Source: Methanothermobacter thermautotrophicus str. Delta H
GTDB taxonomy: Archaea; Methanobacteriota; Methanobacteria; Methanobacteriales; Methanothermobacteraceae
Assembly: GCF_000008645.1 (NCBI RefSeq)
Contig: NC_000916.1
Coordinates: 1,200,001-1,232,000 of the forward strand
Direction: 5' to 3'
DNA: 32,000 bases
A model generated the notes under the pieces. That model did not search any database, was not told the DNA's origin, and was given only the letters and a program-made list of their open reading frames with translations. The translations under genes were made by a program, and so were the position numbers. Below, one piece after another: positions 7,268 through 29,227 of the stretch. Each line of letters starts with the position of its first letter. Positions within the stretch are counted from its first letter, which is position 1.

Positions 7268-7286
7268 TTCCCTCCCCCTCTGCTGA

Positions 7287-8111
7287 CTACAATCTTATGG
7301 GAACTCCCCTTGATCTGAGGTACTCCTTCACTGCAGGGACAGGGTATTCATTGAAGTGGAATATGCTTGCAGCAAGTGCAGCGTCTGCCTTACCATCTGT
7401 GAATGCCTCATAGATGTGTTCAGGTTCCCCTACACCCCCTGATGCGATCACAGGTATGTCAAGGTTCTCGCTCATGGTCCTTGTGAGGGGAATGTCGTAG
7501 CCCATCTTTGTACCGTCACGGTCCATTGATGTGAGGAGAATTTCACCTGCACCTCTATCCTGGCATTCCATTGCCCATTTCACCGCGTCAATACCTGTGA
7601 ATTCTCTTCCACCATAGATGCTGCACTCGTACCAGCAGTATCCATCATCAACCTCTATTATGAACCTTTCATCTGATTCACGGGGGTTTTCGATGTATCT
7701 CCTCTTGGCATCTATTGCCACTACGCATGCCTGGGACCCGACGAGGTCTGATGCCTCATTGATGAGTTCAGGGTTCTTTATTGCGGCCGTATTGGTGGAG
7801 CACTTGTCTGCCCCCGCCTTAAGCATCTTAAAATAGTCCTCTGGCTTCCTTATACCCCCACCGACACATATGGGTACGAAGACGTTCTCTGTGGTGGCCT
7901 CTATCACATGGGTCATGGTCTCCCGTCTCTCATGTGATGCTGTTATGTCGAGGAAGACTATCTCATCGGCACCATCCTCATAGTACCTTGTTGCAAGTTC
8001 TACAGGGTCCCCTGCGTATCTTATCTGTTTGAATTCAACTCCCTTCACGACCCGGCCATTTGGAACCTGGAGGTCACAGTCAAGACATGGTATTATCCTC
8101 TTTGCAAGCAT
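7287..8111 (-). CDS. hisF: Imidazole glycerol phosphate synthase, cyclase subunit
   Basis: Motifs present: [33 protein letters not shown]. The ORF track extends to 8192, but the canonical HisF N-terminus MLAKRII begins at 8111. Confidence 0.9.
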
Positions 8112-8312
8112 TTCAATCGCCATCAACAACTCTGAGGTGTCTGAATCTACATAAAACATATTCCTTCTCATTTGAAATAACCCGGAAGACATATTTATTA
8201 ATTAAGGGGCATTTAGTATAAAGCTGTCTGCTGTCCCCTGAGTCTGGTCTTCGGCTGACACGTTGATGAGAAAATATTTAAATGGTTAACTTTAAATAGA
8301 GATGTGTGTAGG

Positions 8313-8388
<76 letters not shown>

Positions 8389-8410
8389 CTTTTTTATTAA
8401 CTGCTTTTTA

Positions 8411-8926
8411 TTAACCTTCAAAGCACGGAATACAAACCATCCTACCATTCTTTACTCGTGCACGGTGCTCTGAGACGGGTTCACCACACTCTGCGCATAT
8501 GATGGACCCATATATCCTTGCCTCCTCTGGAGGTTTCTCTGAAACATCCCTGACCTCAAAGAGGTCATGTGGATCCATTTCAAGTATCTTCTCTGTCAGT
8601 TCAGCCCTGTCCGTAACCCCGAGTTCCTTCATGAGCTGATCCATTGGTTTTTTAAGTGATATCCTGATTCCATCGCCTGTTTTCCTGTTGAAGAATGTGT
8701 AAACATGTTTTCCGTAATCCCTGAATATCAGGTTGCCCTTTCCAAAGGTGCACCCAGTCATGAACTGGATGGCGTCTATGCTGCAGCTGTCATTCTCAAC
8801 AACCGCCACTATCTCCTCATCCTCTGACCTTCCAAATCTTTCAGCTACGATCTCACCGACCTTGTATCCGAGGGCAGTGCCGGCACAGGAGTGACCGTGA
8901 AATCCAACTATATCCTCATAATCCAT
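8411..8926 (-). CDS. FmdE-family protein with C-terminal zinc ribbon (cytoplasmic)
   Basis: It has the FmdE signature [17 protein letters not shown] and a C-terminal CAECGEP...CIPC. The ORF track starts at 9007. The ATG at 8926 is preceded by a strong GGGAGGGTGAT site at 4 nt, whereas 9007 has none. Confidence 0.8.
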
Positions 8927-9095
8927 AACTATCACCCTCCCTATCTCTGGATCACGATTCAGATATAGGTGATGGTGGTAAACCATGTTTTCATTATTAC
9001 CTTTCATTTAAATCAACAAAAAAATGTAATAATATATCTTTATATTGTAAGAAGAGATTAGTTAACACGAAACAAATTAGAGGGAGGTGAAATGG

Positions 9096-14707: not shown

Positions 14708-15463
14708 TCAGCTTTCAGGAACAATCCTGAAGGAGCACCTTCCATCACCACGGGCATAACATTCCGTCTCCTCCACAATGACATCACCCTTGAAATGACG
14801 GCTGAATACCGCCTCAAGTATCCCTGAGTCCAGTGCACAGGCAGATTCACCTATCTGGTGGAGTAGTCCGCATTCAAAGCATTCATAGGCCCTGATCACC
14901 AGGGGATCTGTGCTCTCCACCTCAAGGACTCCCAGGCGGTTTATCATCCAGAACCTCCTGAGATTTTCAAGGAGATCCCCAAGTTCCTCCGATGCTATCC
15001 TCGGGTATATTACCTCCCCTATTCTTTTTCCTGCCTCATGGCGGACAGGGTCTATGTTTATGCCCTCCTTTATGAGTTCAACCCTCAGGACATGGAACAT
15101 CAGTCTGAAGAATTCAAGGGGGTCACCCCTCTCTGTGAGGTGCTCTGCAAGGAATTCTGTTTTTTCCTCATCCAGTTCATCGATCCTCTTCCTTGTGAGT
15201 TTACCAAGGTACCTTGAGTTTATCTCGAAGAGTTTTCTTCTCCTGTCTTCAGGATCCGGCATTTCAACTATGAGGCCCGCTTTCCTGAGGTCTGAGAGGT
15301 GTTTTGATACTGTGGACTTGGATTTATCTGTGATTCTGACTATTTCCTGGAAGCTGAGTGCTCCCTTTTTAAGTTCGGAGAGTATGAGCGACTTGACAGT
15401 GCTTTCTATTACCTCGATTCCAGTTTCGGTTGAGAATATCGTGAAATTATGTCTCCTCTTCAT
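14708..15463 (-). CDS. msvR: MsvR-type redox-sensing transcription regulator (ArsR-like wHTH + V4R domain)
   Basis: The N-terminal wHTH is LSFQEIVRITDKSKSTVSKHLSDLRKAGLI. The C-terminal module is Cys-rich and V4R-like (ECFECGLL...ACALDSG...ECYARGDGRCSF). It is divergent from fpaA-rlp-rub, as in the described Methanothermobacter msvR locus. Confidence 0.85.
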   Translation of the reverse strand: MKRRHNFTIFSTETGIEVIESTVKSLILSELKKGALSFQEIVRITDKSKSTVSKHLSDLRKAGLIVEMPDPEDRRRKLFEINSRYLGKLTRKRIDELDEEKTEFLAEHLTERGDPLEFFRLMFHVLRVELIKEGINIDPVRHEAGKRIGEVIYPRIASEELGDLLENLRRFWMINRLGVLEVESTDPLVIRAYECFECGLLHQIGESACALDSGILEAVFSRHFKGDVIVEETECYARGDGRCSFRIVPES

Positions 15464-15531
15464 TGGCCCATGTTATGTCTGAAGGACTATATTACTGTTT
15501 CAATACCATGGAACAGAAAAAATTATATAGA

Positions 15532-15569
15532 AGTTCGTATAGTATAGTACATTCGATGATATACGAACT
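15532..15569. promoter_or_regulatory. Operator-like inverted repeat in the msvR/fpaA intergenic region, abutting a TTATATA box (15523-15529)
   Basis: 10-bp perfect arms AGTTCGTATA (15532-15541) and TATACGAACT (15560-15569), separated by 18 nt. An inner TTCG-N8-CGAA unit lies at 15552-15567, which is the half-site type reported for MsvR. Confidence 0.7.
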
Positions 15570-15586
15570 AAATGTGTGGTGATATA

Positions 15587-16801
15587 ATGAAGGCCAGAGC
15601 AGAGAAGATAGCAGATGGATTATACTGGACTGGTGTCCTTGACTGGGACATCAGAAACTACCACGGATACACACTTCAGGGGACAACCTACAACGCCTAC
15701 CTTGTATTCGGAGATGAAGGTGTGGCGCTGATTGACAACTCATATCCAGGGACCTTCCAGGAGCTCATGGCAAGGATGGAGGATGCATTCAACCGTGAGG
15801 GAAGAGAGATGAGAGTGGACTTCATAGTCCAGAACCATGTTGAAAGGGACCACAGCGGAGTGCTGGTGGAACTTCACAGGAGGTTCCCTGAGGCAGAGAT
15901 CCACTGCACAGAAGTTGCCGTGGAGGGACTGCTCAAGCATTACCCGGCCCTTGAGGGCACAGAGTTCCGCACAGTGAAGACCGGGGATTCCATCGACCTC
16001 GGAGGAAGGACCCTCACCTTCCTTGAGGCACCCCTGCTCCACTGGCCAGACAGCATGTTCACCTTCCTTGATACCGGCATACTGTTCTCAAACGACGCCT
16101 TTGGACAGCACCTCTGCTATCCACAGCGCCTCGACACCGAAATACCCGAATACATACTCATGGATGCTGCCAAAAAATTCTATGCGAACCTCATAACACC
16201 CCTATCAAAGCTTGTGCTCAGGAAGTTCGATGAGGTGAAGGAACTCGGCCTCCTTGATAAGATAGGGATGATAGCGCCCTCCCATGGCCAGATATGGACC
16301 GAACCCATGAAGATAATAGAAGCATACACCGCCTGGGCCACAGGTAAGGTGAAGAAGAAGGTCACCGTAATCTATGATACGATGCACCACTCCACAGCCA
16401 TGATGGCCCATGCAATAGCAGAGGGGGCCATGAGCGAGGGGGCTGATGTGAGGGTCTACTACCTCCATGAGGACGACCGCAGCGAGATCGTGAAGGACAT
16501 ACTTGACAGTCACGCCATTGCCCTCGGAGCACCCGCAATCTACGATGAACCCTACCCGAGCGTTGGAGACCTCCTGATGTACCTCCGTGGTCTGAAGTTC
16601 AACAGGACCGGGCAGAGGAGGGCCATGGTATTCGGGTCAATGGGTGGCAGGGGAGGTGCCACCGGGACCATGCAGAAACTCCTTGCGGATGCTGGATTCG
16701 ATGTCATGGAGGCGGATGAAATCTACTACGTCCCGAACAATGAGGAACTCGATGCATGCTTCGAGGCTGGAAGAAGGCTTGCAGGTGATCTCAATGAATG
16801 A
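15587..16801 (+). CDS. fpaA: F420H2 oxidase, flavodiiron protein A
   Basis: It has the metallo-beta-lactamase-like diiron motif HVERDHSG and a C-terminal flavodoxin-like domain ([23 protein letters not shown]). A GGTGAT site precedes the ATG at 15587. The ORF-track start at 15572 is probably too long. Confidence 0.92.
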
Positions 16802-17207
16802 AAACATCACCGGTGTCTGCAGGGGCACCGAACTTGAGAATGTTGTGGATGCAAACTTCAGGGGAGAGTGCAGTGAGGTCGGTATCTACCTTGCAATGGC
16901 AAGACAGGCCCAGCGTGAGGGCCTCCCCGAGGTTGCAGAGGCCTTAAGAAGAATAGCCCTTGAGGAAGCTGCCCATGCAGCCCGCTTTGCAGAGCTAAAC
17001 GGTGTGATCAGGGAAAACCTCAGGGAAAACCTTGAGATGATGCTTGAGGGGGAGGAGGCGGCTAACAGGGAGAAACGTGAGGCAGCCCTCAGGGCAAGGG
17101 AATGCGGTGTTGATGAGGCCCATGACTTCTTTGATGAGAGCTCAAGGGACGAGGGAAGGCATGCTGCCATGCTGAGGGGACTCCTCCAGAGGTACTTCCA
17201 GGGATAA
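16794..17207 (+). CDS. rlp: Rubrerythrin-like diiron four-helix-bundle protein lacking the rubredoxin domain
   Basis: Two E-x-x-H motifs are present (EEAAH, DEGRH) plus upstream Glu-containing helices. The ATG at 16794 follows a GGTGATC site and overlaps the fpaA stop by 8 nt. The longer ORF-track start at 16644 lies inside fpaA. Confidence 0.8.
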
Positions 17208-17209
17208 CC

Positions 17210-17743
17210 ATGAAGATCTGCAGAATATGCGGCTATCAGATCCCAGAAGGTGAATTCAACCTGCTGGAGGATGGCTGGGTGTGTCCCCGGTGTGGTGTTG
17301 GGAAGGAGGAACTCCAGGATTCCGCCGAGCCCCTGGGGGGTCGGGACCCCCTCATGCTTATTTTCAGGGCCATGACTGTGGGGCTCTGGAGGGTTCTGGG
17401 TAATGGATCCCAGGGAGTTACAAGGGAGATGGGGTCTGTGATTGCAGACAACATCAGGCACGGGGATGATCCCCTGAAATCAGCCGCAGACTACTTCATC
17501 GAACATGGATTTGCAGCGTCCATCAGCACAGACACTGAAAACTTTGCCCTCAATGTTAAAAACTGCAGTTTCTATGGATTCTGTTGTTCACTGGAGGAGG
17601 ATGGGGTGCTTTTATCAACCTGCCCCTATGCAAACACGGCCGCTGCAGTCCTTGAAAGGACCACGGGATACAGGTACCGTATAAAACGAAATAAGGGGGA
17701 CCATGGACACATCATTGAATTTTCACGGATATCAAAAAAATAG
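17210..17743 (+). CDS. rub: Rubredoxin-like zinc/iron knuckle fused to a V4R-like domain
   Basis: The N-terminus is CRICGY-x19-CPRCG. The C-terminal ~120 aa has a V4R-like layout (VKNCSFYGFCCSL...STCPYANTAAAVLERTTGY...GDHGHIIEF). The start lies 2 nt after the rlp stop. Confidence 0.75.
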   Translation: MKICRICGYQIPEGEFNLLEDGWVCPRCGVGKEELQDSAEPLGGRDPLMLIFRAMTVGLWRVLGNGSQGVTREMGSVIADNIRHGDDPLKSAADYFIEHGFAASISTDTENFALNVKNCSFYGFCCSLEEDGVLLSTCPYANTAAAVLERTTGYRYRIKRNKGDHGHIIEFSRISKK

Positions 17744-17793: not shown

Positions 17794-18546
17794 TCAGAAA
17801 TCAGCATAGGGTCTCTCCATACCCGCACGCTTCAGTATATCCTCCGCATGTTTGAGGGACCCGTCGCTGCCATCAACCAGGAGGTGGACGGCTCCCTCAG
17901 CCCCCTGGACGCCTCCAGCTGCAACAGGCTCTGCATCCACACCCGCCAGAAGCCTGAGGGCGTCCACCTCTGTGAAGACCTCGCCGGGTACAGGTAACAT
18001 TCCGGGACCCTCAGTGCCGGCTGAATTCATTCGGAGCGCTGTACTGTAAAGGTCGCCTGGTATCATCTTTTCAAGTCCAACCGGGACTATGAGCTCTGTT
18101 TTCCTGCCAGCAGCTGCCTGAAGTGCTGGAAACACTGTGCCGCCCATGGGGTGACCTATGTAGACCGCTGCCCTCCCTGAGCTGTATTCAAGGGCATTGG
18201 CTCCCTTGAGTATCAGGTCCCCCCTTCCAAGTTCATCTGCCACATCAAAGATTGTAATTCCACGATCCCATCTGCCCCTGCGGATTACCACATCACCCAG
18301 GAATTCATGGCCGGTACCATCCGCCCTGAAATAGGGGGGCCTTATGATTCCCCTGTGAAATCCGCGACGGTCAAAACCGTCCTCTCCCAGCTGTCCAAGG
18401 ATCTCCTCTGCTATGTAACCATTGGTTGTCCCGGCGATTATGACCAGGGTGCCCCCCTCAAGCACCCTCCTGATGGATGGATGTTCAAGCATTCCCCATG
18501 CAATTAGACGTTTACCCGCCGCTGGGGTCACCAGGAACTGTTTCAT
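17794..18546 (-). CDS. Conserved hypothetical protein (weak LUD/LutC-like resemblance)
   Basis: The ATG at 18546 lies 5 nt after the nox stop; the ORF track gives a TTG at 18555. The segment ELIVPVGLEKMIPGDL recalls LUD-domain proteins. This is a by-eye match only. Confidence 0.55.
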   Translation of the reverse strand: MKQFLVTPAAGKRLIAWGMLEHPSIRRVLEGGTLVIIAGTTNGYIAEEILGQLGEDGFDRRGFHRGIIRPPYFRADGTGHEFLGDVVIRRGRWDRGITIFDVADELGRGDLILKGANALEYSSGRAAVYIGHPMGGTVFPALQAAAGRKTELIVPVGLEKMIPGDLYSTALRMNSAGTEGPGMLPVPGEVFTEVDALRLLAGVDAEPVAAGGVQGAEGAVHLLVDGSDGSLKHAEDILKRAGMERPYADF

Positions 18547-18551
18547 CTCAA

Positions 18552-19904
18552 TCAATCCTGTGGTCTGCCATTCACCCTTTTCAGTTTTTCACAGGCATCC
18601 TCTGCTGCAAGGATTATGGGGTCTATGACCATTGAGACCGGGGGCGCGTAGGAGAACTCAGTCTCTGAGAGCTCAGAACACGTGAGTCCCTGGGATATGG
18701 CCAGGGACATGGTATCAACCCTCTCAGCGACCCTCTCCTTTGCAACCATCTGGCATCCTATTATCCTTCCCCTGAGGTCACATATCATCTTAACATCTAT
18801 CCTCTCGGCACCCGGGTAATACCTGGCCTTTGTGAGGGCCCTCTTCTTACCTGATACCACCTTTATACCGTTCTGGAGGGCCATGACCTCTGTGAGGCCC
18901 ACTGCACCAAATTCAAGTTCCCCTATCTTTGATACCATTGCATTGAGGACCGGTCTGAACCTTGCATCCATCCCCACTATGTTCTTTGCAGCCACCCTGG
19001 CCTGTCTGACGGCAGTTGAACCCAGGGGTGACTGGGTCCTGAAGCCCGTGACTGCATCGTATACCTCAACACAGTCACCTACCGCGTATATGTCAGGCAC
19101 GCTTGTCTGCATCCTGTCATTTACCTTGACTGCCCACTGTCCAATTTCACATCCTGCCATCCTGGCAAGCTTTGTCTCAGGCCTCACGCCCGTCGCCAGG
19201 ACCACGAGATCCGCCTCAAGGCACTCATCTCCGACCACAACGCCCTCAACCCTCTCATCACCCACTATCCTGTCAAGGGCCTTGCCGAGGATGACCCTGA
19301 TGCCCTTCTCCTCAAGGTAGCCCTGGACTATGGCTGCCATGTCCGGGTCCAGGGATCTCGGGACTATCTGGGGGAGCATCTCGGTGACGGTGACCTCAAG
19401 GCCCATCCTCAGGAGGCCATAGGCTATCTCAAGGCCTATGAGTCCAGCGCCCACCACCACTGCCCTCTTACTTTTTGATGCCCATTCGGTTATCCTTTCA
19501 CCGTCTGTGAGGGTCCTTATGGTGAAGACTCCTTCAAGGTCTGTGCCCTCCACCGGTGGTATGAAGGGTGAGCCGCCGGTTGCAAGGACAAGGACGTCGT
19601 AGGGTATCTCCCTGAGCCCGTCCTTTCCCCTGTAGGTTACAGTCTTTTTTTGAGGATCTATGGCCTCGACCTCTGTTTCCGTGAGGATATCTATGTTCCT
19701 CTCCCTGTAGTCCTCTGGCCTGTGCATAACTATATCATCAAAGCATTCAACCTCACCGCACATAACGTAGGGTATTGCGCAGGGGGAATATGCCACATGT
19801 TTATCACGGGTTATGACCTTTATATCTGCGTCCTTATCATGTTTCCTTATATTGGAGGCCGTTGAAAGTCCTCCGGCCCCGCCGCCAACTATAACAACTC
19901 TCAT
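18552..19904 (-). CDS. FAD-dependent pyridine nucleotide-disulfide oxidoreductase, NADH oxidase / CoA-disulfide reductase type
   Basis: 450-aa ORF with VVIVGGGAGG (FAD), a single redox Cys in YSPCAIPY, AVVVGAGLIGLE (NAD(P)H) and YAVGDC. Confidence 0.88.
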   Translation of the reverse strand: MRVVIVGGGAGGLSTASNIRKHDKDADIKVITRDKHVAYSPCAIPYVMCGEVECFDDIVMHRPEDYRERNIDILTETEVEAIDPQKKTVTYRGKDGLREIPYDVLVLATGGSPFIPPVEGTDLEGVFTIRTLTDGERITEWASKSKRAVVVGAGLIGLEIAYGLLRMGLEVTVTEMLPQIVPRSLDPDMAAIVQGYLEEKGIRVILGKALDRIVGDERVEGVVVGDECLEADLVVLATGVRPETKLARMAGCEIGQWAVKVNDRMQTSVPDIYAVGDCVEVYDAVTGFRTQSPLGSTAVRQARVAAKNIVGMDARFRPVLNAMVSKIGELEFGAVGLTEVMALQNGIKVVSGKKRALTKARYYPGAERIDVKMICDLRGRIIGCQMVAKERVAERVDTMSLAISQGLTCSELSETEFSYAPPVSMVIDPIILAAEDACEKLKRVNGRPQD

Positions 19905-19978: not shown

Positions 19979-20028
19979 ATTTGGATACATCAATAGATCT
20001 GTGTGGTAGTTATAAGGGAGCATCAAAC

Positions 20029-20421
20029 ATGAAGAGTAAGGTTCTATTCATATGCAGGAACAACTCCGGGAGGTCCCAGATGGCTGAGGGGATACTCAGG
20101 GCCATGTACGGTGCCCACTATGAGGTCCACAGTGCCGGCAGTGACCCGAAGGATATCAGCCCCCTCACCATACAGGTCATGGAGGAGATTGGTGTGGACA
20201 TGACTGGCCACAGACCAAAGAGTCTCAGGGAATTTGAGGGCGAAAAATTTGACATCGTTGCAAGCCTCTGCGATGAGGCATGCCCTGTATTCCTGGGTGG
20301 TGAGAGGTACCTTCATGCTGAATTCCCTGACCCGAGGGGTGCAGATATTGACACCCTCAGAAGGATCCGTGATGAAATCTCTGACTGGATAAAGAAGGAG
20401 TTCAACCCTGAAAAACTGTGA
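20029..20421 (+). CDS. Low-molecular-weight phosphotyrosine phosphatase / ArsC-type thiol reductase family protein
   Basis: It has the CX5R(S) P-loop [11 protein letters not shown] and a second Cys pair in SLCDEACP. An AAGGGAG site precedes the ATG at 20029. The ORF-track start at 19813 runs through the promoter. Confidence 0.8.
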
Positions 20422-20443: not shown

Positions 20444-21091
20444 ATGATTAAGGTTGCCATCGTAACAGACGGGCCCTACGGTGAAAGGGCCTATGAGAAC
20501 ATAGCCCGTGAATTCGAGACCATGTTCATTGAACTTGAGGCTCCCTCTGGAATATTTGCAGATGAGGTTGATATACCCGCCGATAAACTCAAGGCCATAA
20601 GGTCAGCGGACATTGTGATAACCTACATACTCCACCCGGACCTCACCCTCGAACTCGTTGATGAGATTCATGGGGATGTTGACTGGATCATCATAGGGGC
20701 CTGGAGGGGTGATGGCTTCAGGAACCAGCTCCTGAGTTACGGCAATCTGACAGCCCCTGAGAACATGTGCGACCTGGAGGAGAACGGTAACCCCTCATTT
20801 GATGAATTCGTGTCAAGGTTTGGAAGGCCCCTGGTGGAGGTGGACCTTGAAGGTGACACGGTTAAGGAGATAAGGGTTCTGAGGTCCTCACCCTGTGGAG
20901 CCACGCTCTTCGTCGCAGAGGAGCTTACCGGTGAGGATGCTCAGGATCTCCCATTAAAGGCCGGGCTTAAGATACAGCACTACCCCTGCCGTGCCCCGAA
21001 AATGAGACTATTTTCAGATGACGAGTGCAAGAAGGAGATGGCTGCCAGGATGCACAGTGAGGCCTTCGAGAGGGCCATTGGAGTGAAATAG
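20444..21091 (+). CDS. DUF166-like conserved hypothetical protein with conserved cysteines
   Basis: 215-aa ORF. The N-terminus [16 protein letters not shown] and the Cys contexts ENMCD, SSPCG and HYPCRAP recall the archaeal DUF166 family. This comes from memory and is not a search result. Confidence 0.5.
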
Positions 21092-21199
21092 ACCTCCATT
21101 GATCAGCTGAACAGTCTAAGGGGAAATAAAGTCAACACCAATAAACTATCATTATTATTCATAATAAATTATTTATTTAAGGGACATCAAGATAGAACC

Positions 21200-21565
21200 A
21201 TGGAAAAAAAGATCCTCACAATAGTCGTCACAGAGGGACCATACCGTTACCAGTATGCAGATATAGCATTTGAAATGGCTGAAAGTGCCATCAAAAATGG
21301 TTACGACGTCAGAATATTCCTCTACATGGACGGGACGCATATACCGAAAAGGAACCAGGCCCCCCAGTCATTCCCCAACAGTGCAGAAAGGCTCAGGTCG
21401 CTGGTGAAGAAGGGTGTGAAGGTAACATCCTGCATAAGATGTTCCACGGCGAGGGGATACACCTGCTCAGAAAGGCCCTACATAAGGGGTGTTGAAATAA
21501 AGAGCGTTTACGATCTTGGAGAATGGGTAAAGGATAGTCACAGAGTGATAACCCTGGGATGTTAA
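21200..21565 (+). CDS. DsrE/TusD-like sulfur-relay protein
   Basis: 121-aa ORF with a DsrE-type layout (ILTIVVTEGPY...) and Cys-bearing SCIRCSTARG at the position of the TusD/DsrE active-site Cys. Confidence 0.78.
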   Translation: MEKKILTIVVTEGPYRYQYADIAFEMAESAIKNGYDVRIFLYMDGTHIPKRNQAPQSFPNSAERLRSLVKKGVKVTSCIRCSTARGYTCSERPYIRGVEIKSVYDLGEWVKDSHRVITLGC

Positions 21566-21566
21566 C

Positions 21567-21923
21567 ATGAAATCCGCGCTCATAATAATAGACAGGGCCC
21601 CCTACGGATATGAAAACGCCTTCAGTGGCCTCTATGTTGTCATAGCATGTCTGAACAGTTCACTGGATACTGATGTCCTTCTAATCGAGGATGGTGTCTA
21701 TGCCGCAGTGGCTGATCAGGTCTCAGAGGCCATCGACTACCCCAATGTTGAGGAACTCACCTACCTCATCTTCCCGGAGGGCAGTGTCTTTGTGCATGAA
21801 AGATCCCTGAAGGAGAGGGGTCTTGAGGAGGATGACCTTGTGGAGGCAGCCGAAGTCATAGACGATACCGAACTGTATGAAATATTCAGGCTGAAGAGGG
21901 ATACTGCGATTATGAAGATATGA
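21567..21923 (+). CDS. DsrF/TusC-like sulfur-relay protein
   Basis: 118-aa ORF with ALIIIDRAPYGYEN... and VHERSLKERGL. The start lies 1 nt after the dsrE-like stop. Confidence 0.72.
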   Translation: MKSALIIIDRAPYGYENAFSGLYVVIACLNSSLDTDVLLIEDGVYAAVADQVSEAIDYPNVEELTYLIFPEGSVFVHERSLKERGLEEDDLVEAAEVIDDTELYEIFRLKRDTAIMKI

Positions 21924-21929
21924 GGTGTC

Positions 21930-22532
21930 ATGATGGAGAGGGATGAAGTTAAAAGGGAGGTCCGGCCCCAGGGATCCCTTGTAAAGGAGGTCACCCTCAA
22001 GCAGGTGAAACCCTGCATTGCGGCTGAAGGTAAAATAAGGGTTCTCATGGAGCTTGACTCAGAAATAGGGGATATCATACCTTTGATTGCAAACATGTAC
22101 CCCCCAGGTGTTGTAAACTATGTCAGGAAGAAGAACATACTCACACTAACAATTTATGACCGTATAATAAGTCTATACCCCTCGGGCAAAATCAGCATGA
22201 ACAAGACCCATGATGTTGAGGAAGCATTTGAAATCGCCGGGGAACTGATGGACAGGATTAACAGGGCCCATGATTCAGGGGGAGATGGGTCTGATTCGCG
22301 GGATATGAGCCGAATCGGCCCCATGGATGTGCACAGATGCCTGCCAGGTAGCAACTGCGGTGACTGCGGTGAATCCACGTGCATGGCATTTGCAATGAAG
22401 CTGCTCAACGGTGAACAGAAGCTTGACAGCTGCCTGCCACTGAAGGAGCCATGGATGCAGGAAAAGGTCCAGTGCCTTGAGAAACTGCTCGGTGAAGAAA
22501 TGATGGAGACCCTTGGCTGGAGCGGTTACTGA
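21930..22532 (+). CDS. Fe-S protein: unknown N-terminal domain + corrinoid-Fe-S-protein/RnfB-type [4Fe-4S] domain
   Basis: 200-aa ORF. The C-terminal block CLPGSNCGDCGESTCMAFAMKLLNGEQKLDSC has the spacing C-x5-C-x2-C-x4-C-x16-C. Confidence 0.7.
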   Translation: MMERDEVKREVRPQGSLVKEVTLKQVKPCIAAEGKIRVLMELDSEIGDIIPLIANMYPPGVVNYVRKKNILTLTIYDRIISLYPSGKISMNKTHDVEEAFEIAGELMDRINRAHDSGGDGSDSRDMSRIGPMDVHRCLPGSNCGDCGESTCMAFAMKLLNGEQKLDSCLPLKEPWMQEKVQCLEKLLGEEMMETLGWSGY

Positions 22533-22855
22533 TGGGATCTGTGGGTTTTCTCGTGACAAAGAGCCCTTCAGAGCTCAGCTTCAAAACATTTCTGGACCTC
22601 GTGGATATCTGGTGCGAAGAGTACCTGAAGGTGTATCTGATATCAAATGGAATATATGCTGCAATGGAAGGAAACAGGTACTCCCACACCATCCGGGAGA
22701 TTTCAAGGACCGGGAATGTTTTTGCAAGGAAGGAAGATCTAATGGCAAGGGGTATAACCCGAGAAATGCTCATAGATGGTGTGGAAGTACTTGAAGGCCT
22801 TGACAGGGTGGTTGTTGATATAATGGAAAACCTGGATATGGTCTTCACATTTTAA
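22532..22855 (+). CDS. DsrH/TusB-like small sulfur-relay protein
   Basis: 107-aa ORF. The call rests on size, the FLVTKSP...VYLISNGIYAA layout and its position after the dsrE/F-like genes. The start overlaps the preceding stop (TGATG). A T6 run follows at 22871-22876. Confidence 0.6.
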   Translation: MGSVGFLVTKSPSELSFKTFLDLVDIWCEEYLKVYLISNGIYAAMEGNRYSHTIREISRTGNVFARKEDLMARGITREMLIDGVEVLEGLDRVVVDIMENLDMVFTF

Positions 22856-22918
22856 TCAATCTACTTCTAATTTTTTGGCTTCCTTCCACCCCTTATACCT
22901 CCACGGGATACCATACGC

Positions 22919-24904
22919 TCACCTCCATATCGTTAATTGATGAATGCCTGGACTCAATAGCCGAGTAGGGTGCCGGCAGTGTATATGATGAAGGAGGCTA
23001 TCCAGGCCACGAACACTGAGTATAACGGTGAGAAGAGGGCCCACCTCTTGCCTTACTCCTTCTTTATATAATATCAGTGTCGCCAGGCAGGGTGTATAGA
23101 GCAGCACGAATACCATGAACGACAGAGCCTCCAGTGGTGTGAAGGCGCCCTGTATGCTTGCTGCGATATTAGCTGCCCCGTGGACCGTTCCGAAGGTGCT
23201 TATGACAAGCTCCTTTGCCGCGAAACCAGATAGAATTGCGACCGCGGACTGCCAGTCACCGAATCCCAGGGGATGGAATATGGGTGCCATGATGGAGCCC
23301 AGGGTCCCGAGTATGGACGAGGAAACATTTCCACCCGGGAACCCTGAAAGGAACCATATGATCACCGAACCTGCAAATATTATGGTCCCGGCCTTCTTTA
23401 TGAACTGGATGCCTCTGTGGTACGTGTGAATCAGGAGAGTCCTGGGCCTCGGAAGCCTGTATGGTGGAAGCTCCATCAGGAAGAGGAAACCTTCACCCAT
23501 GACCACTTCACCCAGCAGACGGGCGGTTATGATCGCCACTGCAATTCCCAGGATGTAGAGGAAAAATATGACCCATCCCTGATAGATGAGGGGGAAGAGG
23601 GCTGACGTGAAGAGCACGTAGACAGGGAGCCTGGCACTGCATGACATGAAGGGTATCATGAGGCTTGTGAGAATCCTCTCCCTCTCAGATCCTATGGTCC
23701 TTGTTGCCATTACCCCCGGGACACAGCACCCGAAGCCAAGCATCATGGGGATGAATGACCTGCCGCTTAGACCCGCCACTGAATTCATTACACGATCCAT
23801 GACAAAGGCTGCCCTTGCCAGGTACCCTGAATCCTCAAGGAAGGTGAGGAGGAGGAAGAGTATGAAGATGTTCGGTGTGAAGACGAGGACCGATCCAACA
23901 CCTCCTATCACACCATCTGCCAGGAGGGACCCTGCAGCTGAGTCTCCAAGGGCGCCCTGAACTGCTCCTGCAAGGTGGGAAACACCAGCATCAATCAGCT
24001 CTGTAAGTGGAGCCCCTGCAGTGAAGGTGAGCTGGAAGATCAGCCACATCACCCCCAGGAGAATCGGGAGCCCCAAGTACCTGTTAAGTACAGCGCGATC
24101 TATAAGTTCAGAGACCGTTACCCTGTCAAGGGAGGGTCTCGTGAGGGACCTCTCCAGGAGTCCCTCTATGAGGCCGTACCTTGCATCTGACACCAGGATG
24201 TCCGCATCAGCAGAGTGCTCCTCCTCAAGGATCCTTCTGATCCTCTCAAATTCCTTGATGAGGTCCTCACCAACCATTGAGGCAACCCTTTTATCCCCTT
24301 CAAGAAGTTTTATTATGATCCATTCAGCTGGAAAATCTGCCTCAACGTCTTCAAGAAGTTCCCTGAATTCCTTAATAGCATCTGACCTCAAAAATTCATA
24401 TCTGATCTGTGGAGGGTTACTATTCACCTGTCTTATGGCTGCTTCAAGCAATTCATCCTGATTTCCTTCAATGGCCTCCACCTTTATGACCGGCACCCCC
24501 AGCAGTTCCTCAAGTCTCTTCTCATCAAGCCTGTATCCCTTCCTCTCTGATTCACGGTTGAGGTTCACTGCGATGATGGTGTTGAGGCCGAACTCGAGGA
24601 TCTGAAGTGTGAGGTAGAGGTTCCTCTCAAGATTGGATGCATCAACAACACTGATTATGAGGTCCGGTCTCTCATCAAGGAGATAATCAACGACCACCTC
24701 CTCCTCGGGAGATCCCGCTGTTAGACTGTAGGTTCCTGGGAGATCTGTAATTTCAATATCATTTTCCCTGAAGTTCAGGTATCCTGTTTTCTTTTCAACA
24801 GTCTTCCCTGGCCAGTTTCCAACGTGCTGATTGAGTCCCGTAAGGTTATTGAAGAGGGTGCTCTTTCCAACATTCGGGTTTCCTGCAAGTGCTATTCTGA
24901 GCAT
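22919..24904 (-). CDS. feoB: Ferrous iron transporter FeoB (C-terminus apparently frameshifted near 23053)
   Basis: The G-domain motifs are GNPNVGKST and DLPGTYSL, followed by a long polytopic membrane domain. The canonical last helix is encoded in the +1 frame and ends at 22954 (see findings). Confidence 0.9.
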   Translation of the reverse strand: MLRIALAGNPNVGKSTLFNNLTGLNQHVGNWPGKTVEKKTGYLNFRENDIEITDLPGTYSLTAGSPEEEVVVDYLLDERPDLIISVVDASNLERNLYLTLQILEFGLNTIIAVNLNRESERKGYRLDEKRLEELLGVPVIKVEAIEGNQDELLEAAIRQVNSNPPQIRYEFLRSDAIKEFRELLEDVEADFPAEWIIIKLLEGDKRVASMVGEDLIKEFERIRRILEEEHSADADILVSDARYGLIEGLLERSLTRPSLDRVTVSELIDRAVLNRYLGLPILLGVMWLIFQLTFTAGAPLTELIDAGVSHLAGAVQGALGDSAAGSLLADGVIGGVGSVLVFTPNIFILFLLLTFLEDSGYLARAAFVMDRVMNSVAGLSGRSFIPMMLGFGCCVPGVMATRTIGSERERILTSLMIPFMSCSARLPVYVLFTSALFPLIYQGWVIFFLYILGIAVAIITARLLGEVVMGEGFLFLMELPPYRLPRPRTLLIHTYHRGIQFIKKAGTIIFAGSVIIWFLSGFPGGNVSSSILGTLGSIMAPIFHPLGFGDWQSAVAILSGFAAKELVISTFGTVHGAANIAASIQGAFTPLEALSFMVFVLLYTPCLATLILYKEGVRQEVGPLLTVILSVRGLDSLLHHIHCRHPTRLLSPGIHQLTIWR

Positions 24905-25237: not shown

Positions 25238-28200
25238 TCAGTATCTTCCCTGGAAGAAGTAACCCACTCCAAGGAGACACACAAGGCTTATAACACCAAT
25301 TATAGCATATATGGGAGTCTGAGTGCTTGAAGAGGTGCTGTTGGTTGATGCTGCAACCTCATAGGCCTTTCCAGAACCTTCAGAAGCTCCAGAGTTTTCT
25401 GAAACCTCTGATGACTCTAAAGCCTCATCTGACGATGAACCTGATGCTCCGCCTGCATTCCCTGCGGAACCTGAAGAAGGTTCACCTGTCTCACCGATTC
25501 CATCCCCATTCACTGAGCCCGGCTGTGAATCCCCAGAGCCAGGAACATCAATGGACTTCCCTGTGGCTGCAGCCATTGCAGCCGCAAATTTTCTGAGGGC
25601 CGCCTGGTTGAGGGATGATAGCTTCACCACCCAGCTGTTGAAGACCATGTTGGCACATGTGTGGTGACAGCAGACAACACCATACTCATTAACCGCCGCG
25701 ATGTACTCATCGGCAAGCCTCTGCAGTGTAGCTGAATCTGTGCTCCAGAGGCCCCTGCGGCTGGCCTCAAGGAGCCAGGCTACCGTTGAGGCATAGGAGT
25801 AGGGCTGAAGACTCTTAAATCTGCTGCTTACCTGAGGATCAAAGACATAGGTCTCTGCAACCTTCTGCCACATCCAGTCCTGGACCAGATCAGGGGTGAC
25901 TGCACTCCAGCCGAATAGATGTCCTATCTCCTTGGATATCTGATGAGCACCTGAGAATCCCTGATTCAGCATTCCCTCAATCCATTTCGGGTTGTAGGTC
26001 CTTGTTCTGAGTTCTGCTGCAATGAAATCTGCCAGTGTCTCCATTCGTGGTGTGAACCTTGTATTGGCGATGTATGAGGCAACATTCCTTCCTGAAATGG
26101 TCCTTGCAGCCATCGTGAGACCCCCAAGGTACTGGTAAACGTCGTCGTTGTCAAGAACACCGTAAACACTGTCCCTGACCTGTACTGTTGCATCCACATT
26201 TGATAGCTGCTTCATGAAGACCTCCTTTGCATCAATGGCGTATATGTCCTTTCCATAGATGAATCCCATATGATTCAGGTAGGTTTCAAGGAGCTGTGAC
26301 TGATTATCCCACTTTGCAGTTGATTCAACCACTTCAGGTAGCCCGGTACCGTAACTTCCAGGGGCACTGCCAAATATCCTTGCACCGGCAAGTGTCTCCG
26401 CTGCCTGTAAACCCCTGGCAGTATAATTCGCCAGGTCTGCAAGGTAATGTTTCCTGAGGTAGTTGCCTTCCACCGGTTCATCCAGTTTCATGACAAGCCT
26501 TATCGCCTCATCCATCCTGTCGATACTGTAGGCAAATGTGTCTCTGAACAGTCCACTGATAGTGACCAGAACATCGATTCTGGGCCTTCCAAGCACTTCC
26601 AGGGGTGTTACACTTATTCCTGTGAATCTTCCTGATTTATCCCATACCGGTTCAGCTCCGATGAGTCTCAGAACCATTGCTATTGTCTGACCACTGGTCC
26701 TCATGGTCTCAATTGCCCAGAGAACCACCCCAACAGATTCGGGATATCTGCCATTCCTTGAAAGGTAATCTGCAATGAGGTCATCTGCCATCTTCTTACC
26801 GATCTCCCATGCAGCCCTATCAGGTGCAAGTCTGGGGTCAAAGGAATAGGAATTCCTTCCCGTCGGCAGGAGGTCGGGTATCCTTATGGGATCAGCCCCC
26901 CGACCCGGTTCAACAAAACGTCCCTCAAGGGCCCTCAGAAGGTTTGTGATCTCCTGGTCAGTGGCAAGTTTCTCTCTTACGGCATTCCGGAACTCTGTGT
27001 TATTCCTCGATGCTGGGTCAAAGCTCACAATTGCCTCCACCATTGCATCAAGGAGCTCCCCGCTAAGGGGTTCCCCGAAGACATGTAACCCGTAGGGTAT
27101 CAGTGTTGCTGATAGCTCATCAAGCCTGTGCTCAATTCGATCAAGGGCCTCTTCAAAGGAAGCATTGAGGTCAATGTTAAGTTCCCTGTGAAGGTCCAGT
27201 TTAACCGTGAGATTTCTGATTTCCTCAGCGATTATCAGCTTTCTCTGGGGATCCTCAGACGTATGGTAAAGGTTAATTTTGTGTTCAAGTTCAGATAGAT
27301 CCCCGTAAAGTTCACTTACCACCATAGGGGGGATGTTATGGTTTATGAGGACCGCGTACCCACGCCTCTTTGCCTGAGTCCCCTCACCCGGGTTGTTTAC
27401 GATGTAGGGGTAGATATGTGGCAGGTCACCTATCATCACGTCGGGCCAGTCAAGGGATGATAGACCAACTGATTTCCCTGGTAACCATTCGAGGGTTCCG
27501 TGTGTACCAAGATGTATAACTGCGTTGAAGTTTTTCTGAAGCCAGAGATAGAATGCAAGGTACTGGTGGTGCGGTGGGAGTGTTGTTGAATGTATGAGGT
27601 CAGCTGCATCCTCGCCGAATCCGCGCATTGGCTGGGGGCCGAGGAATACGTTGCCAAGCATAACACCCGGGATCACTATGCTGCCATTGTAGACCATGAC
27701 GTTTCCAGGGGCAGGTCCCCATGTCGCTGTTATGTTATTTCTCAGGGTTTCTGGCAGTAGACTGAACCAGTTAAGGTATTCAGATACTGGAACTGTTACT
27801 GCGCCGGCCCTGACAACCTTCTCAAGTTCACCCGGAGCCCATGAACCCACATTCAGGCCCGGCCCGAGGAGTATGTTTATCACCTCTGCAGTGGATTTTT
27901 CCTCAACATTGTAGCCAGCACTCCTTAGCGCCCTCAGTATGTTGCTGATGCTCTCTGGTACGTTGAGGTAACTCGCACTGATACCATCCTTACCCCCACC
28001 AATGTTGTAGTATATAAGGGCTATCTTCTTCTCCGCATTTGGAAGTTCCCTTAACTTTATCCAGTTGATCAATCTCTCTGTGAGCCTCTCTATCCTTTCA
28101 GGAATCGGAACATAGTATGTATAACGCAGCCCTGTCTGAGGGTCTGTCTCCTCAACTCCGCCGCCGATCATGACTGGCTCTATCCTTCCGTCGATCTCTG

Positions 28201-29227
28201 GAAGTGCTATCTGCCAGTACACCTCAGATGAAAGTCCTGATATGCTCTCGTTCCATGCCCTGAGATTTGATGCATAGACCGCAGCAATTGCGGGTAAATC
28301 AAGTTCCGTGAGGATTGCTGTGGAGTTCAGGGGATCACCGCTGTATAAATTGAAGCCCATGCATGTTATGAGACCGCTGATCCTGGGAGTCCTGTTACCA
28401 TCCAGGAAGAAGTTCTCAATAAGGTTCCGCTTTGTAGCTGTGTCAGCTGCAAAGCCAAGGATCACATTGTAACCCTTTCTCTCAAGGCTCTCAAGTATGG
28501 CGGTGTGCATTCTCATGTCGCTTCCACGGTAGTATGTATCGAATGTGATTATGCCCACCCATGGTTTTCCTGCCCTGTAGTGGCCGCTCTGAACATACCA
28601 GGAGTAGTAACGGTCCCATGCTGTGAACTGTTCGCCGGCGTCGGGGTGATATACAAATGATTTCACCGCGGGAATGGCTGTTACATTCTCCTCATTTTTT
28701 AGCTGCATTCCAGCATCCCTCAGAAGGAGGAGCATCATTCTCCGGAAGTTCTCGGGGCCTCCCTGATCCCAGATGTACTTCACTGTTGCGTTGTCCGCAC
28801 CCACACGGGGATCATCCTTGAATGTGTTGCCGGTTCCTATGGCAATTATTTTGCTGGCCCCCGTAACATTAAGGATTGGATTGACCTTCGCCAGGGTGTT
28901 TGGAGAACTTATCATCTGAATGAGAATCACGTCAGCCTTTCTACCCGCCTCCAGTGCCGCCATGTCTATCTGAGGATCGTTCCTTAGAAGTTCATCGTTT
29001 GTGAACATTGAAAGATTGAATCTGTAGCCGTCCCGTCCTGCAAGTTTATAGCCTTCCACTATTGCCTTTGTACTCGAAGTTGACCCTGTGATTATGAGAA
29101 TACTGTAATGGGAAGAATTCTGCTGAATCGCACCCTCTGTGACGTTGCTGCTGTTATCAGCCGCTGAAACACCTCCCGCAAGCATGATTGTCATGAGTAG
29201 AATCACTGGAATAACTGATGTCCTCAA
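25238..29227 (-). CDS. CobN/Mg-chelatase-H-family protein with signal peptide and C-terminal membrane anchor (predicted cell-surface)
   Basis: 1329-aa ORF. The TTG start lies 5 nt after a GGAGGTG site. There is a signal peptide (MRTSVIPVILLMTIMLAGGVSAADN) and the CobN/BchH hallmark HLGTHGTLEWLPGK. Many N-x-S/T sequons occur. The C-terminus has a G/S/E-rich linker, KAYEV, and a TM helix (IYAIIGVISLVCLLGVGYFF). Confidence 0.85.
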   Translation of the reverse strand: MRTSVIPVILLMTIMLAGGVSAADNSSNVTEGAIQQNSSHYSILIITGSTSSTKAIVEGYKLAGRDGYRFNLSMFTNDELLRNDPQIDMAALEAGRKADVILIQMISSPNTLAKVNPILNVTGASKIIAIGTGNTFKDDPRVGADNATVKYIWDQGGPENFRRMMLLLLRDAGMQLKNEENVTAIPAVKSFVYHPDAGEQFTAWDRYYSWYVQSGHYRAGKPWVGIITFDTYYRGSDMRMHTAILESLERKGYNVILGFAADTATKRNLIENFFLDGNRTPRISGLITCMGFNLYSGDPLNSTAILTELDLPAIAAVYASNLRAWNESISGLSSEVYWQIALPEIDGRIEPVMIGGGVEETDPQTGLRYTYYVPIPERIERLTERLINWIKLRELPNAEKKIALIYYNIGGGKDGISASYLNVPESISNILRALRSAGYNVEEKSTAEVINILLGPGLNVGSWAPGELEKVVRAGAVTVPVSEYLNWFSLLPETLRNNITATWGPAPGNVMVYNGSIVIPGVMLGNVFLGPQPMRGFGEDAADLIHSTTLPPHHQYLAFYLWLQKNFNAVIHLGTHGTLEWLPGKSVGLSSLDWPDVMIGDLPHIYPYIVNNPGEGTQAKRRGYAVLINHNIPPMVVSELYGDLSELEHKINLYHTSEDPQRKLIIAEEIRNLTVKLDLHRELNIDLNASFEEALDRIEHRLDELSATLIPYGLHVFGEPLSGELLDAMVEAIVSFDPASRNNTEFRNAVREKLATDQEITNLLRALEGRFVEPGRGADPIRIPDLLPTGRNSYSFDPRLAPDRAAWEIGKKMADDLIADYLSRNGRYPESVGVVLWAIETMRTSGQTIAMVLRLIGAEPVWDKSGRFTGISVTPLEVLGRPRIDVLVTISGLFRDTFAYSIDRMDEAIRLVMKLDEPVEGNYLRKHYLADLANYTARGLQAAETLAGARIFGSAPGSYGTGLPEVVESTAKWDNQSQLLETYLNHMGFIYGKDIYAIDAKEVFMKQLSNVDATVQVRDSVYGVLDNDDVYQYLGGLTMAARTISGRNVASYIANTRFTPRMETLADFIAAELRTRTYNPKWIEGMLNQGFSGAHQISKEIGHLFGWSAVTPDLVQDWMWQKVAETYVFDPQVSSRFKSLQPYSYASTVAWLLEASRRGLWSTDSATLQRLADEYIAAVNEYGVVCCHHTCANMVFNSWVVKLSSLNQAALRKFAAAMAAATGKSIDVPGSGDSQPGSVNGDGIGETGEPSSGSAGNAGGASGSSSDEALESSEVSENSGASEGSGKAYEVAASTNSTSSSTQTPIYAIIGVISLVCLLGVGYFFQGRY

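Follow-up and report, generated by a model that had tools for sequence, protein, structure and literature searches.

The window analysed here comprises 32,000 nucleotides of contig NC_000916.1 (positions 1,200,001 to 1,232,000, forward strand) from the methanogen Methanothermobacter thermautotrophicus str. Delta H, and contains, at positions 21200-22855, a cassette of four plus-strand open reading frames (ORFs), E, F, X and H, read directly from the window sequence. E (21200-21565) encodes a DsrE/TusD/YchN-type subunit of 121 aa with the cysteines Cys78-x2-Cys81 and Cys89, F (21567-21923) a DsrF/TusC-type subunit of 118 aa, and H (22532-22855) a DsrH/TusB-type subunit of 107 aa that is without a conserved cysteine. 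X (21930-22532), which lies between F and H, encodes a protein of 200 aa in which a predicted repeat resembling TATA-binding protein (TBP; residues ∼16-115) is joined by a linker to a C-terminal [4Fe-4S] domain of the type found in the corrinoid iron-sulfur protein (CFeSP) and RnfB. E and F are separated by 1 nt and F and X by 6 nt, and the stop codon of X overlaps the start codon of H (TGATG).

The cassette is preceded on the same strand by an AT-rich spacer of 108 nt (21092-21199) that is a putative promoter and operator region, with a TATA-like element, TTATTTATTT, located ∼20-28 nt 5′ of the E ATG. The last ∼60 nt before E are ∼97% identical to those of another Methanothermobacter species (locus L001), whereas the X proteins of the two are only 86% identical. 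A perfect palindrome, TTATTAT-TC-ATAATAA, is present beside the TATA-like element (within 21140-21199) and is a candidate operator. Past the H stop codon an oligo-T tract (22856-22880, plus strand), with six consecutive T residues at 22871-22876, probably represents an archaeal terminator, and the convergent feoB gene (22919-24904, minus strand) begins after a gap of 63 nt from H. The coordinates, gaps, stop/start overlap, AT-rich spacer and T6 run given in a preliminary description of this DNA, made from the letters alone, are all present in the sequence, as are the motifs that it named, SCIRCSTARG in E and C137-x5-C143-x2-C146-x4-C151-x16-C168 in X. A DNA search for near-identical plasmid sequences gave zero matches to the region; E is 98% identical to a protein of Methanothermobacter sp. 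CaT2, and for X the identity to M. defluvii-type proteins is 97-99%.

Each of E, F and H has its own counterpart among the DsrE/TusD, DsrF/TusC and DsrH/TusB subunits, in that order, and the subunit-specific matches to Pfam, NCBIfam and the PDB agree with the family assignments first made for them. E matches Pfam DsrE at 2.9e-27 and, among solved structures, YchN best (2.8e-8), followed by DsrE (7e-7) and TusD (2e-3); its score against the TusD model TIGR03012 is 35.3 bits, under the equivalog cutoff of 89.25. F matches Pfam DsrE at 1.8e-12, the TusC/DsrF model TIGR03010 at 4e-13 and, as its best PDB entry, DsrF (2hy5_B, 5e-8), and it too falls under the equivalog cutoff (49.2 bits against 94.15). 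H matches Pfam DsrH at 2e-14 and the structures of TusB (1.4e-5) and DsrH (4e-5), and is the only subunit to pass its NCBIfam model (TIGR03011, TusB/DsrH; 79.6 bits, cutoff 49.2). A word-indexed protein search with E recovered only 19 relatives, from Methanobacteriales, and relatives of E carry the KEGG/IMG-style database name ‘tRNA 2-thiouridine synthesizing protein D’.

The first cysteine of the SCIRC motif, Cys78 of E, aligns with Cys78 of both DsrE and TusD, so that the cysteine pair noted earlier in this ORF does lie at the DsrE/TusD active-site position, and the C-x2-C pair itself is common to YchN. In 42 Methanobacteriales sequences C78 and C81 are 100% and C89 95% conserved; in a second, Methanothrix-type lineage (see below) the CxxC of E is kept and the third cysteine is missing from four of the five E proteins. 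Cys28 of F is present in 98% of the Methanobacteriales sequences, yet is not kept in the second lineage. The sole cysteine of H, Cys28, occurs in just 2% of the 42 sequences, and Cys20 of Allochromatium vinosum DsrH, a residue specific to DsrEFH, aligns with Val24 of H; Methanothrix-type H proteins have a cysteine at about that position. Cluster ligands aside, the only cysteines universal across both lineages are the CxxC pair of E and Cys29 of X.

Homologues of X were collected from one genome per GTDB species by a scan that relies on two peptide patterns; it gave 507 relatives, the best 80 of which were kept (41 loci from Methanobacteriales and 39 from other lineages). X matches the Pfam family FeS (PF04060) at 7e-15, with 54.8 bits against a gathering cutoff of 23, over residues 138-170 only, and no Pfam or NCBIfam model covers residues 1-130. 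The PDB matches of the Fe-S domain are the CFeSP large subunit (best, 7.6e-8) and RnfB, with ∼40% identity to 4djd_C over 39 residues. In the alignment of the family the cluster ligands C143, C146, C151 and C168, as well as Cys29, are invariant in 80 of 80 members, and Cys137 and Cys182 are confined to the Methanobacteriales clade. X is thus predicted from its sequence to be a [4Fe-4S] protein of the CFeSP/RnfB type, and the module type originally proposed for this ORF is upheld by the PF04060 match and by ligands that align with those of CFeSP structures.

The N-terminal domain of X, which the preliminary description could not place, is not unplaceable by fold. An AlphaFold (AF2) model of X built from 25 homologues has a mean predicted local distance difference test (pLDDT) of 84 and shows an N-terminal layout of beta-beta-alpha-beta4-alpha, which Foldseek matches to the TBP 1ais_A over 83 columns (root-mean-square deviation, rmsd, 2.6; probability 1.0). 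Dozens more archaeal and eukaryotic TBP chains match the domain, with Foldseek E-values of only ∼1e-2. The Pfam TBP profile (PF00352) gives weak matches in 12 of 40 family members, the best at 2.1e-5, and the only member for which a score is shown, P0115, reaches 19.5 bits, under the gathering cutoff of 22.9; the window X itself has no match to PF00352. In the model, therefore, the N-terminal domain appears to be a single TBP-like repeat, with the invariant Cys29 in its first core strand. This domain is not basic (net charge -1, isoelectric point 6.1; family median charge 0 to +2), and the window X shows neither a match to a helix-turn-helix (HTH) profile nor an HTH in the AF2 model. For these two reasons the idea that X acts as a DNA-binding TBP analogue was down-weighted.

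The order E-F-X-H is found in 41 of the 41 Methanobacteriales loci, from Methanothermobacter, Methanobacterium and other Methanobacteriaceae. The survey of synteny between the X gene and dsrF- and dsrH-like genes that had been proposed at the outset has thereby returned the same order throughout that set. E and X were recovered in all 41 loci, F in 40-41 and H in 38-40, with the shortfalls at contig ends, and the median intergenic gaps are 0, 31 and 27.5 nt. E-F-X-H is one conserved, tightly spaced operon, an arrangement beyond chance. No X orthologue from Methanobrevibacter or Methanosphaera is present among the best 80 of the 507 relatives found with the two peptide patterns, and this absence suggests that the cassette is an accessory rather than a core gene set. 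One Methanobacteriaceae genome carries two copies ∼6 kb apart (L023:520-2441 and 7199-8967); in the first copy H stands ahead of E-F-X and X is seemingly frameshifted, and in the second E is truncated and F is not detectable.

The 39 X loci outside Methanobacteriales derive from ANME-1/2, Methanosarcinales, Archaeoglobi, Bathyarchaeia and Nitrososphaerota, and from the bacterial groups Chloroflexota, Halanaerobiales and Thermodesulfobacteriota. None of them has a DsrE-fold neighbour detectable by phmmer and then by E, F and H profile hidden Markov models (HMMs) at E<=10, and the idea of an invariable association of X with DsrEFH was given up on that account. Their recurrent neighbours encode Acr3 (SBF family), ArsR-type HTH proteins, low-molecular-weight (LMW)-phosphatase-type ArsC, DGC-domain proteins, Thioredoxin_3 proteins, TauE-type exporters, OsmC and radical-SAM/SPASM proteins. 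Chloroflexota, Archaeoglobi and ANME have ars-operon marker genes close to X, and in Archaeoglobus fulgidus the X gene stands divergently to genes for an ArsP-type permease and a Thioredoxin_3 protein. The inserted Fe-S subunit of the preliminary description is syntenic with E, F and H, and it is not specific to the relay, the X family being widespread in ars-type operons. In five Chloroflexota loci (L058, L066, L068, L075 and L078) a radical-SAM/SPASM gene follows X (∼+3.5 kb) in ars-type operons, and in one of these (L078:7977-9779) X and the radical-SAM/SPASM gene read as a single ORF of 600 aa, which reflects a fusion or else an artefact of assembly or of a frameshift.

A similar context surrounds the complete cassette in Methanobacteriales. 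In the Methanobacterium locus L002 the same-strand order is arsM, a gene for a Cys-rich Fe-S protein, arsR, DGC, arsC, DUF166, acr3 and E-F-X-H, so that here the cassette comes straight after a complete ars operon, and the markers counted upstream in the 41 loci are DUF166 (32 loci, directly upstream of E; between arsC and acr3 in L002), ArsC (15), DGC (15), ArsR (13), ArsM (12) and Acr3 (6), with the ArsC orthologue occurring together with arsR and DGC (15 of 41). Same-strand adjacency to arsR, arsC, acr3, arsP or arsM thus recurs in unrelated lineages, as expected of an ars-accessory gene set. The protein encoded between arsM and arsR in L002 (2658-3650) and in six other Methanobacteriales loci is a Cys-/Glu-/Gly-rich protein of 330 aa with a 4Fe-4S ferredoxin motif and no family beyond Fer4. 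As had been noted for dsrC, tusE, mnmA and dsrAB in the window, no DsrC/TusE, DsrAB or MnmA domain was found among the window ORFs scanned, nor among the conserved neighbours of the cassette.

A full-library phmmer search with the N-terminal domain of X recovered only 39 cluster representatives, some of them with N-terminal extensions. Relatives of ∼265 aa from Methanothrix and from Methanosarcina-type metagenome-assembled genomes begin with an ArsR-type winged helix; the HTH_5 profile is detected in five of 40 family members (best 3.4e-6), and in an AF2 model of one such HTH-X protein (pLDDT 78) the N-terminus superposes on the A. fulgidus ars repressor 1y0u with a template modelling (TM) score of 0.63, an rmsd of 1.8 and 35% identity. 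The predicted domain order of these proteins is ArsR winged helix, TBP-like, Fe-S. The X family is labelled ‘ArsR family metal-binding transcriptional regulator’ in databases, a label that reaches HTH-less members because their HTH-fused relatives carry the winged helix; the window X has no ArsR/SmtB winged helix, and its present annotation as an ArsR regulator is a misnomer.

Five of the eight HTH-X contexts examined (Methanothrix-type) have the order arsR-[HTH-X]-E-F-H. The three proteins encoded after HTH-X, a DsrE, a DsrF-like protein and one of ∼115 aa, reach 6.7e-43, 3.9e-22 and 8.4e-7 against the E, F and H profiles of Methanobacteriales, with identities of 41%, 39% and 30%, respectively, and the neighbouring genes include arsR, acr3, arsP, and DGC, methyltransferase and rhodanese genes. 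The pairing of X with EFH hence persists through a change of gene order and through gain or loss of a DNA-binding domain, and it is well supported that the partnership is real and recurrent, being found in two archaeal lineages, in two gene orders and in both cases among ars genes. In the window the genes are spaced as is typical for subunits that are translated together. At two further loci (L086 and L090) a subclade of HTH-X proteins of 277-283 aa is encoded beside an LMW-phosphatase ArsC and an unassigned protein of ∼200 aa, divergently from genes for a molybdopterin oxidoreductase with a twin-arginine translocation (TAT) signal, a 4Fe-4S subunit and an NrfH-like cytochrome, with TusA nearby; the set could be an arsenate- or sulfur-respiring module.

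Both the association with ars operons, rhodaneses and thiol reductases and the patchy distribution speak against a function in tRNA thiolation or Dsr metabolism, and they weaken the case for a core biosynthetic role. The context favours accessory handling of metalloids or sulfane sulfur, or sensing, over a general sulfide-assimilation relay. It is proposed here, tentatively and as something short of an even chance, that E-F-X-H constitutes an accessory redox-coupled sulfane-sulfur (persulfide) relay in an arsenic and reactive-sulfur resistance neighbourhood. E, F and H would assemble as a DsrEFH-like hetero-oligomer, and Cys78 of E would take up sulfane sulfur from a donor for which the candidates are a protein or low-molecular-weight persulfide, polysulfide or thioarsenate, the last being formally As(III)+S0. 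Cys81 would then resolve the E persulfide, so that sulfide is released and a disulfide is left on E. X would dock on E via its TBP-like domain and re-reduce it, low-potential electrons from the [4Fe-4S] cluster passing via Cys29 in a manner analogous to ferredoxin:thioredoxin reductase (FTR), and in the Methanothrix-type relatives the ArsR winged helix would also report the state of the relay to transcription. Past homology and synteny, these mechanistic steps are ones that we infer.

Several points weigh against this proposal. That the proteins form a complex, that X binds a cluster, which way the electrons flow and what the substrate is are points that we infer, and the HTH fusions would be just as compatible with an X module that serves as a sensor instead of a reductase. 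X has a single universal non-ligand cysteine, whereas FTR has a cysteine pair. The synteny within Methanobacteriales is partly inherited, so that the 41 loci are not 41 independent observations. Finally, the window keeps only the ArsC-like gene and DUF166 of the ars context, and five Methanobacteriales loci are without both.

Two other explanations have to be weighed most seriously. According to the first, which is the reading of the preliminary description and is unlikely, the cassette is a biosynthetic sulfide-activating relay in which X takes up electrons as sulfide is oxidised to the E persulfide and EFH hands the sulfur to a biosynthetic acceptor, in a methanogen without cysteine desulfurase. 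Many class I methanogens do use sulfide directly, without IscS/SufS-type desulfurases, and such a relay would suit both the subunit types and Cys78 equivalent, which match DsrEFH/TusBCD, and the electron-transfer-type [4Fe-4S] domain encoded in the operon. However, no acceptor gene (TusE/DsrC, MnmA or NcsA) is found in the window or conserved beside the cassette, and the neighbours are consistently ars, rhodanese and thiol-stress genes rather than biosynthetic ones. The patchy occurrence, in Methanobacterium/Methanothermobacter and the Methanothrix type and not in Methanobrevibacter among the best 80 of 507, also speaks against a biosynthetic role, as does the occurrence of the X family without EFH in many phyla.

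The second explanation is that X is chiefly a sensory or regulatory module, whose Fe-S cluster and Cys29 would sense sulfane sulfur, a metalloid or redox state and to which EFH would feed its signal; the HTH-less X of the window would modulate EFH or another regulator by protein contact. The window protein is a poor candidate for this role in that it has no HTH and its TBP-like domain is not basic, and the position of its gene between F and H, with a 6-nt gap on one side and a stop/start overlap on the other, is typical of a stoichiometric subunit. Canonical ArsR genes already stand beside the fusions, and the Fe-S domain is of a type otherwise known only from electron-transfer proteins. The ArsR/SmtB winged helix of the ∼265-aa relatives (HTH_5 in five of 40 members; model match to 1y0u), the location of HTH-X fusions directly upstream of E-F-H, an N-terminal fold of a nucleic-acid-binding type and the transcriptional-regulator label given to the family in databases all lend the idea weight; we regard it as unlikely.

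A further reading, and one that we consider distinctly unlikely, is that the cassette together with rhodanese and Acr3 forms an enzymatic system for thioarsenate desulfuration or sulfane-sulfur reduction. Among arsenic species, thioarsenic ones predominate in the sulfidic environments that methanogens inhabit. Cys78 of E would take the sulfane sulfur off thioarsenate, in chemistry analogous to that of rhodanese acting on thiosulfate, and so free arsenite for export by Acr3 or ArsP; X would discharge the persulfide reductively as sulfide, and HTH-fused X would couple the state of the system to transcription. If that is so, thioarsenic species would for the first time have a defined enzyme system. 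It is very unlikely that the cassette is instead an ArsD-like set of arsenite-binding metallochaperones, in which C78, C81 and C89 of E would bind As(III) for delivery to Acr3 or ArsM with no sulfur transfer. Such a role would account for the three closely spaced conserved cysteines of Methanobacteriales E and for the Acr3 or arsM gene that adjoins in several genomes, but the third cysteine is missing from four of five second-lineage E proteins, the fold and active-site arrangement are those of a persulfide carrier, the co-occurrence of rhodanese indicates sulfur transfer, and the need for an Fe-S protein would be left unexplained. That the genes encode a canonical TusBCD for tRNA 2-thiouridine (s2U) synthesis, as the KEGG/IMG-style names of source proteins and the passing score of H against the TusB/DsrH model would have it, is scarcely credible, given that E and F lie far under the TusD and TusC equivalog cutoffs, that no TusE, TusA or MnmA is in the window, that archaeal s2U is made by NcsA/Ncs6-type enzymes and that the ars context does not fit.

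What is new in the proposed redox-coupled relay is the pairing, in an ars context, of a DsrEFH/TusBCD-type carrier with an Fe-S/TBP-like partner of its own. A conserved carrier of this kind in methanogens would bring a redox-coupled reaction into the family, and the cassette offers a way into the uncharacterised X family, which is present in many anaerobic archaea and bacteria. The HTH-fused relatives would act as one-component regulators of a new design, with a sensor of the Fe-S/TBP-like type, and the recurrent ars context constitutes a testable link between sulfur and arsenic. We know of no enzymology linking persulfide trafficking to arsenic detoxification under sulfidic, anoxic conditions, in which most arsenic is thiolated. 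In the searchable literature no paper was found on the cassette, the X family or a DsrE-ars link, nor were arsenic-dependent expression or genetic data for the cassette, and existing databases merely name its parts. The one related paper found describes a response to arsenite of DsrE/F-like genes and of a rhodanese gene adjacent to ars genes in Thioalkalivibrio, with roles that its authors call unclear (PMC6620896).

Directly upstream of the cassette, and probably on a separate transcript, is a DUF166 gene (20444-21091, plus strand; Pfam DUF166 3e-76). A DUF166 paralogue is essential for autotrophy dependent on carbon monoxide dehydrogenase/acetyl-CoA synthase (CODH/ACS) in M. maripaludis (bioRxiv 10.1101/2024.03.05.583561). 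The Fe-S domain of X is of the type found in the CODH/ACS corrinoid protein, which in conjunction with DUF166 may be a coincidence or a lead. A CODH/ACS link was set aside because the context of DUF166 in M. maripaludis differs and nothing else indicates acetyl-CoA synthesis. Further upstream, an ArsC-like gene of the LMW phosphatase family (20026-20421, plus strand; Pfam LMWPc 1.3e-19) scores 72-91 bits against arsenate-reductase NCBIfam models, under their cutoffs, and a minus-strand gene (18552-19904; Pyr_redox_2 7e-65) encodes a flavoprotein resembling CoA-disulfide reductase (CoADR) and NADH oxidase, with 365 bits against the CoADR model TIGR03385 (cutoff 578.8); a CoADR-like gene lies upstream of the cassette in 32 of the 41 Methanobacteriales loci. 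The stop codon of an adjoining minus-strand ORF of 253 aa without a Pfam match (17794-18555) lies in a 4-nt overlap with the start of the CoADR-like gene, and this ORF is recognisable elsewhere only in the Methanothermobacter locus L001, where it is seemingly split.

Other genes of the window include an oxidative-stress-type cluster upstream of the cassette (14708-17743), with genes for an ArsR-HTH and V4R-domain regulator (14708-15463, minus strand), an FprA-like flavodiiron protein (15572-16801, plus strand) and a protein of 177 aa (17210-17743, plus strand) with a sub-threshold rubredoxin-type Pfam match (E 7.4e-4; 20 bits, cutoff 23). On the other side of the cassette, adjoining feoAB, a minus-strand gene with a TTG start (25238-29227) encodes a CobN/Mg-chelatase-family protein of 1329 aa that has a signal-peptide-like N-terminus, a Ser/Gly-rich tail and a C-terminal hydrophobic anchor; from these sequence features it looks to be located at the cell surface, which would be odd for a chelatase. 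A plus-strand gene with a GTG start (9087-11888) encodes a protein of 933 aa with two FmdE-domain stretches, a large FmdE architecture that is unusual, and adjoins a minus-strand gene for a conventional FmdE and zinc-finger protein (8411-9007).

Compared with known systems, the cassette most closely resembles DsrEFH of A. vinosum (2HY5) and TusBCD of Escherichia coli (2D1P), alpha2-beta2-gamma2 heterohexamers with persulfide transfer. The likeness lies in three DsrE-fold paralogues in the order E-F-H (D-C-B), in window subunits that match their cognates best or near-best, and in the Cys78 persulfide site that E keeps. Unlike these systems, the cassette has the gene for the Fe-S/TBP-like protein X between F and H, its E subunit adds a CxxC (as in YchN) and its H subunit has no equivalent of DsrH Cys20; E and F fall under the equivalog cutoffs, no DsrC/TusE, DsrAB or MnmA partner is found in the window or conserved beside the cassette, and the context is of the ars type. 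To our knowledge DsrEFH and TusBCD have been described, respectively, in sulfur oxidisers and as part of tRNA thiolation in bacteria, in neither case with a redox cofactor. YchN of E. coli (1JX7), a homohexameric DsrE-fold protein whose function is not established, is the best structure match of E over its full length and shares the C-x2-C at the active-site position, but it is a homo-oligomer encoded alone, whereas E has distinct F- and H-type partners as well as X.

X shares with the CFeSP large subunit (CfsA/AcsC/CdhE) and with RnfB the ligand pattern C-x2-C-x4-C-x16-C and similar surrounding sequence. The domain is N-terminal in CFeSP and C-terminal in X, where a TBP-like domain takes the place of the TIM-barrel/corrinoid or ferredoxin module, and X has an extra, clade-specific cysteine six residues upstream. 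TBP itself is a tandem pair of repeats with a helix-grip-type fold, whereas X would have a single repeat, of near-neutral charge and with an invariant cysteine. The catalytic subunit of FTR is a small [4Fe-4S] protein in which cysteines near the cluster reduce a partner disulfide with electrons from ferredoxin; its likeness to X is a functional analogy only, with no kinship of sequence or fold and with a single extra cysteine in X as against the CPC/CHC pair of FTR. The HTH-X relatives are comparable, again as a functional analogy, to SqrR and BigR, persulfide-sensing ArsR-family repressors of sulfur-detoxification operons, in that they have an ArsR/SmtB winged helix; SqrR and BigR sense via two cysteines within the ArsR fold, whereas HTH-X adds a separate TBP-like and Fe-S module.

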